Positions 53,407 to 56,785 of a stretch of DNA of 64,000 nt are shown here, piece by piece. Source of the stretch: a virus; the IMG/VR virus record IMGVR_UViG_3300033145_000274, positions 61,080 through 125,079 of that record; one strand, given 5' to 3'. Positions within the stretch are counted from its first letter, which is position 1, and each line of letters begins with the position of its first letter. Both the position numbers and the translations under genes were made by a program. The notes beneath the pieces were generated by a model, which did not search any database, was not told where the DNA came from, and worked only from the letters and a program-made list of their open reading frames with translations.

Positions 53407-53434
53407 TTGACAACGAGGAAAAGTGGTGTATAAT
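53407..53434 (+). promoter_or_regulatory. sigma70-like promoter of RNA cluster
   Basis: TTGACA-16nt-TATAAT. Confidence 0.8.
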
Positions 53435-54265: not shown

Positions 54266-54344
54266 GGCAAGAGAACTAATGTCGAGGGAATCGGCAGCGA
54301 GTTTGCAAAGCTCGTGTTTATGGGCTCGACTCCCACTTTTGCCT
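54266..54344 (+). tRNA. tRNA-Cys(GCA), expanded D region
   Basis: CGAGT-TTGCAAA-GCTCG; U73; T loop CTCGACT. Confidence 0.7.
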
Positions 54345-54960
54345 CTATGTACCCCTTGTCGCAGGGTTACTCAAAACTGAGTTGCTGTTCATGTTGGGGC
54401 GCTCAGGCGTGTTCTCGAATACGTATATGCGAAAGGCAGTTTGTTGTTCGTAGTACCCTCTACGGGCCAACAACAAGGTTGCCGGAACATAAAATGGTGG
54501 GGACCATTGAGAGTTCTAAGTAGCTGGATAGCAAGGGCCACATCCCCGTGTGGATTACTGCTTGTAAGGCATAGCGGTTTTTCTGTGTTTATCGGACGTA
54601 CCAACTAAGACATAACTAGTCAATAGTTTATTTGTCTTGGGAAAGAGCGTAAGCTCAAAGCGCAGTAGTGGTGTAAGGAAGTGTCTACGGGCGAAGCTGA
54701 AAGGCATCGTCGTCACACCCGAAAGGGACATAGTTCGGCCATCGCCCAAGGGTGGTAGAGTTGTGTGAGGCAAGCTAAAGGCATCTTGCAAATGTTCTTT
54801 AGTAACCTTAGAACGAGCACTGCTATAGTAACGTGCTGTTGCGTGGAGTAGCGTCCAACAACAGGGACAAAATTGGTGAAGCGGTTCGCAGCCGCGTGTA
54901 CAGACGGGCTACCATGAGAATGTGTCGCTATTAAACGCCCGGTCACCAGCCGTACCTAAG
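54345..54960 (+). ncRNA. candidate large structured ncRNA
   Basis: ~600 nt with no convincing ORF between tRNAs; multiple GNRA hairpins. Confidence 0.6.
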
Positions 54961-55028
54961 AACTTGTGCTTAAAGGTACTTTAATTATACAATGGCATAG
55001 TATCGGGGAACCGATACTATGTCGTTGC

Positions 55029-55099
55029 GGCCTCTCCGAGGGAATGCGGCACCGTGACTACGAATCATGGATGCGATGGTTCAACTCCATCAGGGGCTA
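55029..55099 (+). tRNA. tRNA-Arg(ACG)
   Basis: CGTGA-CTACGAA-TCATG; GATGG-TTCAACT-CCATC. Confidence 0.82.
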
Positions 55100-55103
55100 C
55101 TCT

Positions 55104-55176
55104 GGTACATGAGCACCGGTATGTGCTAGCAAAGCTGATAACTTTGCCGTGCAAGGTTCAACTCCTTGATGTACCA
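55104..55176 (+). tRNA. tRNA-Ile(GAT)
   Basis: CAAAG-CTGATAA-CTTTG; GGTACAT/ATGTACC. Confidence 0.9.
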
Positions 55177-55213
55177 CTTGTGTTTATCACGTTCAATAAG
55201 GGAAAATATACAC

Positions 55214-55741: not shown

Positions 55742-56785
55742 ATGGCGATATGGACACAAGAAGGCAATCGGGTTCTCTTACATGCCCCGCACCTACAACG
55801 TCAGAGCAAGTGTTATTTTGTAATGCCTGACAACTTTAAGCTTTCGGATGTGCATCCGGACTTACTGCGTCTGTGTGAATTCATTTTGATTCCACAAGAT
55901 AAACAGCCACATAAGTTTACTCGACAACCAGGTAAGGGAGTTGGAGTTGCATTTAGTGGAGGTACGGATTCGTCCGCTGCGTATTGTTTGCTGCGTGACC
56001 TGAATCCCCACCTGTTTTACTTGATGCGCGATGGCATAAAGCCGACTATTATGAAGCACGATAACCCACTAAAGGTTTTCAGTGATAATAATATAGATGT
56101 GCATTGTATGAAAACAAACAGTGAATTACTCAGACTCAACCATGCGCCAGAGGTGGGGTTTGTAACAGATTATCATGTATCCATACCATTGATATTGCTT
56201 GCTGACCAATATGACTTGGGTTGTATGTGTACTGGAACCATGTTGGGGTCTACGTTTCTATGGAAGGGCTACCAATATCGTGAGTTTGAAGAAACGGGAC
56301 ACTGGAAATACTGGGGGGGGCTTTTTAAGCAAGCTGGCTTACAAATGTTCATGCCGGTTATGCCATGTTCAGAAATTCTAACTAGCAGTATTGTACAACA
56401 AAGTGGATTTCAGTCGGAAAGTTGTGCCCGAGGTTGCGGCAAACCATGTTTGAAATGTTACAAGTGTTTCCGTAAACAAGCTATTAGTGGTATCAAACTG
56501 GATTCATATATTGGCACACCCATACAGGGCTCACTTAAACAGCGTCCTTTGAAACAGGGCGCTAGTATGATACAGGCCAATAACAAGTTTCATCTTGGTA
56601 TTGCTGAATTAAAAGAGTATGAGACTCTGGACATGTCATGGACTGAAAGATATTATGCCAGAGGCATAGAACTTGCACCAGAACGATATCAAAAGCATTT
56701 GACCGCCCGGCTAAATCAATATGCTGATGCAATGACTAGCGATGATATAGATAAACTACAACACTTTGATATTTCTGGTGATTGA
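55742..56785 (+). CDS. PP-loop/adenine-nucleotide alpha-hydrolase-like protein
   Basis: VAFSGGTDS; C-terminal SC..C..C.KC cluster. Confidence 0.7.
   Translation: MAIWTQEGNRVLLHAPHLQRQSKCYFVMPDNFKLSDVHPDLLRLCEFILIPQDKQPHKFTRQPGKGVGVAFSGGTDSSAAYCLLRDLNPHLFYLMRDGIKPTIMKHDNPLKVFSDNNIDVHCMKTNSELLRLNHAPEVGFVTDYHVSIPLILLADQYDLGCMCTGTMLGSTFLWKGYQYREFEETGHWKYWGGLFKQAGLQMFMPVMPCSEILTSSIVQQSGFQSESCARGCGKPCLKCYKCFRKQAISGIKLDSYIGTPIQGSLKQRPLKQGASMIQANNKFHLGIAELKEYETLDMSWTERYYARGIELAPERYQKHLTARLNQYADAMTSDDIDKLQHFDISGD

Follow-up and report, generated by a model that had tools for sequence, protein, structure and literature searches.

Background

To our knowledge, few non-coding RNAs of bacteria and phages that are longer than 500 nt and adopt elaborate conserved folds are known. 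Non-tRNA products of phage tRNA clusters are exemplified by the species 1 and 2 RNAs of phage T4, which are about 140 nt long, have simple folds, are co-transcribed with the phage tRNAs and are freed by tRNA-processing enzymes. The closest described systems, ROOL and GOLLD, are large, ornate RNAs of phages and prophages, the genes of which often lie close to tRNA islands; both assemble into cages made of RNA only (Kretsch et al., bioRxiv 10.1101/2024.12.08.627333). A described GOLLD example is located 3′ of tRNA-Met, and tRNAs are sometimes found inside GOLLD (Kretsch et al., bioRxiv 10.1101/2024.12.08.627333). ROOL has been described from rumen samples and Firmicutes. It measures about 0.6 kb, with many helices and pseudoknots, and lacks a partner protein gene (Kretsch et al., bioRxiv 10.1101/2024.12.08.627333; see also Weinberg et al., 2017, PMC5737381). 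A survey of structured RNAs in IMG/VR yielded only motifs of 29–151 nt (PMC10690425).

The locus described here resides in a window of 64,000 nt (the whole stretch of DNA analysed), which makes up the 3′ half of IMGVR_UViG_3300033145_000274, an IMG/VR record of 125 kb that derives from an uncultured phage and is estimated to be 69 % complete. A large ornate non-coding RNA had been predicted in this window by inspection of the sequence; comparison with homologs confirmed this original prediction and revealed that the tRNA strand of the phage tRNA array encodes a conserved RNA of about 625 nt with covarying pairs, a size and setting in agreement with the likeness to GOLLD and ROOL proposed at that time. 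Judging from the aligned homologs, an RNA family of about 625 nt exists almost certainly at positions 54351–54990 of the window, and the locus as a whole very probably represents one non-coding RNA of about 625 nt belonging to a previously uncatalogued family. A description of this large RNA was not found in the literature.

Results and discussion

Genomic context and coding potential

Overall, 30 tRNA genes and one tmRNA gene were identified by ARAGORN. The large terminase shares at most 25 % identity with any terminase of cultured phages, indicating that the lineage is poorly sampled. At its 3′ side the unit is bounded by the genes for tRNA-Arg(ACG) and tRNA-Ile(GAU) (55029..55177, + strand; tRNA-Ile starts at 55104), and tRNA-Arg/tRNA-Ile also follow the large RNA in L117, L119 and G003 (see below for these loci). 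Further downstream, positions 55742–56785 encode a 347-aa protein with an SGGTDS PP-loop-like motif, the sole match of which was DUF6395 (E = 5e-25); 3′ of this gene, a radical SAM protein and then three glycosyltransferase-like genes are encoded. A 70-aa protein encoded upstream had three matches in the homolog search. With a G+C content of 48 % as compared to about 43 %, the region is only slightly enriched, and composition is, therefore, no useful signal.

The absence of a convincing ORF, noted from the beginning, could be substantiated: on neither strand do positions 54344–55028 contain an ORF exceeding 78 aa, and no short ORF is kept in all homologs. Stop-free frames of 80–117 codons are present across the copies of the large RNA. 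Variable sites are distributed over the three codon positions without 3-base periodicity (40/78, 32/77 and 36/77, respectively), and indels among the copies comprise 1–2 nt. In the alignment of all six copies, variability is higher in paired (64 %) than in unpaired (47 %) columns, as is typical of an RNA in which compensating changes let the stems diverge but junctions and loops stay constant. A small protein could be considered as an alternative product, e.g., of 77 aa from an antisense ORF at 54713–54946, since the window and L116 both keep this frame open and L117 and G003 contain a comparable open frame. The frame is, however, interrupted in L119 and L122, the indels of 1–2 nt and the even spread of variable sites over codon positions in the region disagree with translation, and the same columns carry compensating base-pair changes on the + strand, leaving the coding alternative with a practically negligible probability.

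Homologous copies and their distribution

Five further distinct copies of the large RNA were detected (69–86 % identity), of which two stem from phage records of IMG/VR and three from contigs of metagenomes; every copy is located on the tRNA strand directly 3′ of tRNA-Cys(GCA). A terminase search yielded 519 related IMG/VR contigs, and when the 19 longest records of these terminase relatives were searched with the region by blastn, a syntenic copy with 70 % identity was retrieved in G003, a complete genome of 173 kb in which the large RNA is situated between tRNA-Cys and tRNA-Ile. Blocks conserved between the window and G003 served as scan patterns, and true copies were verified with R1, a 3′-domain covariance model which finds all copies of the large RNA at 133–177 bits. 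Confirmed by R1 were L116 (86 % identity), L117 (75 %), L119 (69 %) and L122, while L121 (identical to L119) and L118 (the G003 sequence truncated at its 5′ end) were not counted as distinct. The comparative set comprises six sequences from about four lineages.

Two more IMG/VR patterns drawn from other domains retrieved only G003 and L122 as true copies. Several candidates were rejected: a 22-nt match in G005 is located in coding-looking sequence and attributed to chance, the scan with the 17-mer CCAACAACAGGGACAAA produced 18 chance matches besides G003, and two out of seven metagenome pattern matches (L115 and L120) as well as both GTDB pattern matches (L123 and L124) failed the R1 model, as did every other pattern match apart from the copies named above.

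Neither blastn of the region nor tblastn of the 347-aa neighbour protein returned a match among 50,697 cultured phage records, and a search for related loci using two neighbouring proteins retrieved nothing. Likewise, no copy was detected by blastn and R1 in the 18 other terminase relatives (four of them at least 90 % complete), and no paralogs of the large RNA were found within the window. The family is rare and so far restricted to a small set of large uncultured phages rich in tRNA genes, and its absence from the 18 terminase relatives and from cultured phages implies that the large RNA is dispensable for the lineage. It seems to travel with large tRNA arrays, as the tRNA model matched 20 times in G000 and 26 times in G003 versus 0–3 times in G001, G002 and G004–G009. 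Within that set, the large RNA and large tRNA arrays occur in the same two genomes, G000 and G003.

The immediate surroundings of the copies differ in detail. In L117, the large RNA abuts tRNA-Cys at one end and tRNA-Arg at the other. In L116 only, a 136-aa HNH-type endonuclease ORF (motif CANCHRKIH; L116:2828–3238, + strand), which probably encodes a homing endonuclease, is inserted between the large RNA and tRNA-Arg; its position just past the 3′ end of the large RNA marks the boundary of the latter.

Conservation of the fold

The six distinct copies were aligned with MAFFT on the basis of sequence only, without structural input (alignment A6), and the RNAalifold consensus of A6 comprises 165 pairs in 26 helices. 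As controls, pairing partners were either shuffled among the sequences (500 times) or slid by 1–3 columns. In A6, 95.1 % of the cells are paired compared to 82.4 ± 0.7 % with shuffled partners (the observed value was reached in none of the 500 shuffles) and 37–44 % with slid partners. Changes on both sides affect 78 of the 165 pairs (34 shuffled, 10–20 slid), and the covariation score amounts to 0.524 (0.262 shuffled, about 0.1 slid). The homolog alignment suggested together with the original prediction thus placed pairing in all six copies clearly above both controls.

Since RNAalifold rewards covariation, a held-out test was additionally run: the minimum-energy fold computed from the window copy only keeps 71–87 % of its pairs in the five other copies, as compared to 35–45 % when slid, and among the held-out cells in which both bases differ from those of the window, 111 out of 150 are still paired. 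The single-sequence fold is also more stable than that of shuffled sequences, a comparison likewise suggested beforehand, with z scores of −3.2 (+ strand) and −3.7 (− strand). As the fold is stable on both strands, these z scores alone are suggestive but leave the strand undecided; it is the comparison among homologs that sets the fold apart from chance. The + strand is the RNA strand: the alifold energy amounts to −179.8 kcal/mol on the + strand versus −115.5 kcal/mol for the reverse complement, the covariation term to 26.3 versus 11.0, and the flanking tRNAs are located on the strand of the large RNA in all six loci.

Domain architecture

The large structured RNA (54351..54990, + strand), as delineated from A6, the consensus fold, the pair-count controls and the held-out test, possesses a conserved core that begins with ACCC at 54351 and ends at 54973 with the 3′ strand of the closing helix; a short tail rich in U and A then extends to about 54990. 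Across the copies, the ACCC at the core start is located 7–21 nt past tRNA-Cys, and at the 3′ end CUUGUG is followed in all copies by a hairpin, which is short and weak, and by a U-rich tract. Closure of the 5′ and 3′ ends by helix P1 (54355..54365 with 54963–54973, + strand; 95 % of cells paired) is a plausible prediction rather than one proven by covariation, as its changes are one-sided only (G-U to A-U, G-C to G-U) and double covariation amounts to zero.

The 5′ domain (54377..54517, + strand; helices 2 and 4–9), in which 27 out of 40 pairs changed on both sides, is composed of the hairpins 54377–406 and 54407–24, a branched stem (54435–83; helices 5–7) and a last stem (54484–517) with the apical hairpin 54493–508. 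The second domain (54523..54570, + strand) consists of the stacked helices 10–12 with a CCCC loop at its end. The third domain (54583..54665, + strand; helices 13–15) is closed by 54583–90/54658–65 and contains a variable stem (54606–39) and a GNRA-type hairpin (54645–56); helix 14 is the weakest (83 % paired, zero double changes). The fourth domain (54666..54825, + strand; helices 16–22) represents a multi-helix junction closed by 54666–74/54817–25, which holds the invariant GGAAGUGUCUACGG, two GAAA hairpins, a long stem (54728–66) and the stem 54768–809 capped by the loop CUUGCAA. The 3′ domain (54833..54950, + strand; helices 23–26) contains the stem 54833–68 with a GUAGCG loop and the stem 54872–79/54943–50 enclosing the hairpin 54881–95 and the stem 54905–09/54937–41, the conserved loop of which measures 27 nt in the window and 27–30 nt in the other copies. 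Overall, conservation is highest in junctions and loops, and stems vary by compensating changes.

Several short stems recognized at the outset are retained in this architecture. Covariation in the six homologs was observed for the stem TTGTTG/CAACAA (54441–45/54469–73), the hairpins GAGC-GTAA-GCTC (54645–56) and GCT-GAAA-GGC (54696–705), and the stem GCGG..CCGC (54881–95), while CCC-GAAA-GGG (54718–27) and ACCC/GGGT (54351–67) are invariant across the six homologs and thus uninformative about pairing. Two other proposals had to be abandoned. The arms of the presumed hairpin TGC-GAAA-GGCA are unable to pair in G003, and GGCAG pairs with TTGCC at 54479–83 instead. A long-range helix had been envisaged between about 54679 and about 54936; GCCCG (54937–41), however, pairs with CGGGC at 54905–09 with 5 out of 5 pairs covarying, and at the CAC end of the envisaged helix TCACC pairs with GGTGA at 54875–79 instead.

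A further hairpin is located at 54990..55027 (+ strand), one base 5′ of tRNA-Arg; its stem measures 17 bp, a few of them G-U, and its loop reads GGAA. It is genome-specific, being absent from all homologs and situated outside the conserved RNA, and may represent a processing site or an insertion remnant.

Long-range contacts and integrity of the RNA

Beyond the nested helices, several candidate pairings connect distant segments. The pseudoknot PK1 (54393..54397 with 54601–54605, + strand; 97 % of cells paired) would tie the 5′ domain to the third domain; 3 of its 5 pairs change on both sides, with GUUGG/CCAAC in the window being replaced by ACCGG/CCGGU in the majority of the more distant copies. 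A putative loop-loop contact connects GGGG (54499..54502) with CCCC (54544–54547, + strand) and reads GAGG/CCUC in L116 (A-U for G-C). The pseudoknot PK3 pairs GCGG (54574..54577) with the loop UCGC (54886–54889, + strand) about 310 nt apart, with 100 % of the cells paired and one pair changed from C-G to U-A or U-G, and would tie the junction of the second and third domains to the 3′ domain. Additional candidates are the loop-loop pairing PK4 of UAGCG (54849..54853) with the complementary CGCUA (54926–54930, + strand), which is invariant except for one change of G-C to G-U, and a pairing of 54517–54520 with the loop 54785–88 (+ strand), changed on both sides in L119. These tertiary pairings were chosen for complementarity and each rests on one to three events in six sequences; they are good candidates, not proofs. 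As judged from the alignment, at least three such candidate pseudoknots or loop-loop contacts with covariation would join the domains over long range. The domains are present in unchanged order in six out of six copies, with none missing, duplicated or reordered, and the interdomain contacts together with this constant order favour a single globular RNA.

Alternatively, the region could consist of several small RNA modules or tRNA-like cassettes which fold independently of each other and are merely adjacent in the tRNA array, as would be compatible with each of the five domains being self-closed in the consensus fold and with a 5′–3′ closing helix devoid of double covariation. Such an assembly is quite unlikely, since the covarying pairs 54393–97/54601–05 and 54574–77/54886–89 bridge domains across 200–310 nt, no copy has lost, duplicated or rearranged a domain, no part resembles a tRNA or a small RNA family in Rfam, and the domains adjoin without spacers.

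The upstream tRNA-Cys

The gene directly upstream of the large RNA (54266..54343, + strand) codes for a non-canonical tRNA-Cys(GCA), which has U73 as discriminator and in which the acceptor stem comprises 8 bp and the T stem 4 bp; although it is missed by ARAGORN, its GCA anticodon and its fold with an 8-bp acceptor stem agree with the earlier assignment as tRNA-Cys. On the tRNA-Sec model of Rfam, which cross-matches ordinary tRNAs when applied to the relatives, it scores 22.5 bits and its homologs score 31–45 bits, in each case better than on the tRNA model. The homologous genes are located at L116:2043–2113, L117:1186–1256(−), L084:2145–2216(−), L119:1208–1285(−) and L122:2329–2401(−). In all six phages the tRNA-Cys is non-canonical, with an acceptor stem of 8 bp and a T stem of 3–4 bp; the linker between acceptor and D stem measures 5–8 nt in three of the six copies, and ARAGORN misses four of the six. 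Phage 8/4 tRNAs have been described for Ser and His, and delta-proteobacteria possess such tRNAs for Cys (Mukai et al., PMC5389517). A report of an 8/4 tRNA-Cys in phages was not found in the literature.

Transcription and release

A promoter-like site (53407..53434, + strand) with the arrangement TTGACA-16-TATAAT matches the sigma-70 consensus in 12 out of 12 positions and is located ahead of a tRNA-Gly/Lys/Lys cluster; by its sequence it is a candidate promoter of the tRNA/RNA transcription unit. No promoter-like site was found between tRNA-Cys and the large RNA, and from this together with the sigma-70 consensus at 53407–34 we infer co-transcription with the tRNAs. Judging from its position, the large RNA would be transcribed as part of the tRNA array, processing of the 3′ end of tRNA-Cys would cut just 5′ of it, and cleavage by RNase P at the next downstream tRNA would free its 3′ side. 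Release of the large RNA by tRNA processing, as suggested by this arrangement, is reasonably likely.

The position within the tRNA transcription unit, the lack of a detectable promoter of its own, and the short hairpin with U-rich tract past the core in all copies would also fit a long leader or spacer which acts in cis on the tRNA operon, e.g. as a processing or attenuation element, instead of a stable trans-acting RNA. A 625-nt fold that comprises about 25 helices, pseudoknots and conserved junctions, however, far exceeds the needs of known processing or attenuation signals, relatives without the large RNA still process their tRNAs, and the downstream tRNA varies (Arg or Ile), with an HNH gene in between in L116; a cis-acting role is, therefore, hardly credible. 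By analogy with ROOL and GOLLD, the large RNA may act as a free, self-folding and possibly self-assembling molecule during infection.

Relation to known RNA families

Searches against Rfam 15 with filters laxer than default gave no match at E ≤ 10 for the copies of the window and G003 and none at E ≤ 1 for those of L116, L117, L119 and L122; these searches cover ROOL (RF03087), GOLLD (RF01998), OLE, RNase P (RF00010 and RF00011) and group I/II introns. The statement that the family cannot be assigned by eye thus extends to the covariance models, none of which matched any of the six copies. The size and the setting resemble those of ROOL and GOLLD near phage tRNA islands, and the short stretch ACAGACGGGCUA may resemble the CR-V motif of RNase P, so that a highly divergent GOLLD, ROOL, RNase P RNA or group I/II intron overlooked by the Rfam models might be envisaged. 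Next to the missing Rfam matches (E ≤ 10 for window and G003, E ≤ 1 for the other four), this is contradicted for RNase P by the CGGGC following ACAGA, which pairs locally with GCCCG (helix 26, 5/5 covarying), unlike in the P4 helix, a pseudoknot joining CR-I with CR-V, and for introns by the flanking tRNAs, which are complete and thus reveal no interrupted gene; in particular, exon halves are absent because the upstream tRNA-Cys is complete. A divergent member of these families is, therefore, highly improbable, and the large RNA constitutes a family of its own, which is of the same general type as ROOL and GOLLD but belongs to neither.

With respect to function, a connection with the translation or tRNA toolkit of the phage appears probable by analogy, and the constant presence of an unusual tRNA-Cys, the abundance of tRNA genes in these genomes and the tmRNA point loosely in the same direction. 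Self-assembly in the manner of ROOL and GOLLD, the foremost guess as to function, is, by the same kind of analogy, possible but doubtful. A conceivable site of contact is the loop CUUGCAA of helix 22 (54785..54791, + strand), which contains the 6-nt palindrome UUGCAA (54786–54791). In L119 this loop reads UUAGCUG, with 4 of 7 bases changed, and is again self-complementary when G-U is allowed (UAGCUG). The first four bases of the loop may, however, also pair with 54517–54520, where an A to U change at 54518 matches a U to A change of the loop in L119, so that the changes in L119 would fit both palindromic self-pairing and intramolecular pairing, which are inseparable with six sequences. A third, unrelated class of RNA-only self-assembling particles, with UUGCAA as intermolecular kissing site and with a functional tie to the 8/4 tRNA-Cys, must be regarded as rather unlikely.

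An independent family of the same size, in the same tRNA-island setting and likewise lacking a partner gene would demonstrate that such RNAs were invented repeatedly by phages, and the large RNA would provide a third case for asking what RNAs of the ROOL/GOLLD kind do. Its clean comparative structure, defined ends and constant tRNA neighbour render it usable for in-vitro transcription, probing and cryo-EM.

In comparison to the species 1 and 2 RNAs of T4, the large RNA is likewise a non-tRNA RNA of a phage tRNA cluster, with co-transcription and release presumed from its position, but it is more than four times longer and predicted to be pseudoknotted. With GOLLD it shares the nature of a large ornate phage RNA tied to tRNA genes, in its case always following tRNA-Cys; GOLLD, however, exceeds 800 nt and combines a conserved 3′ half with a variable 5′ half, whereas the large RNA measures 625 nt and is conserved throughout. 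The likeness to ROOL comprises the length of about 0.6 kb, the many helices, the (here predicted) pseudoknots, the phage or prophage origin, the proximity to tRNAs and the lack of a partner protein gene. In contrast to the large RNA, which is known from six uncultured phage contigs only, ROOL was described from rumen samples and Firmicutes. ROOL forms a homo-oligomeric RNA-only nanocage, as the large RNA might do.
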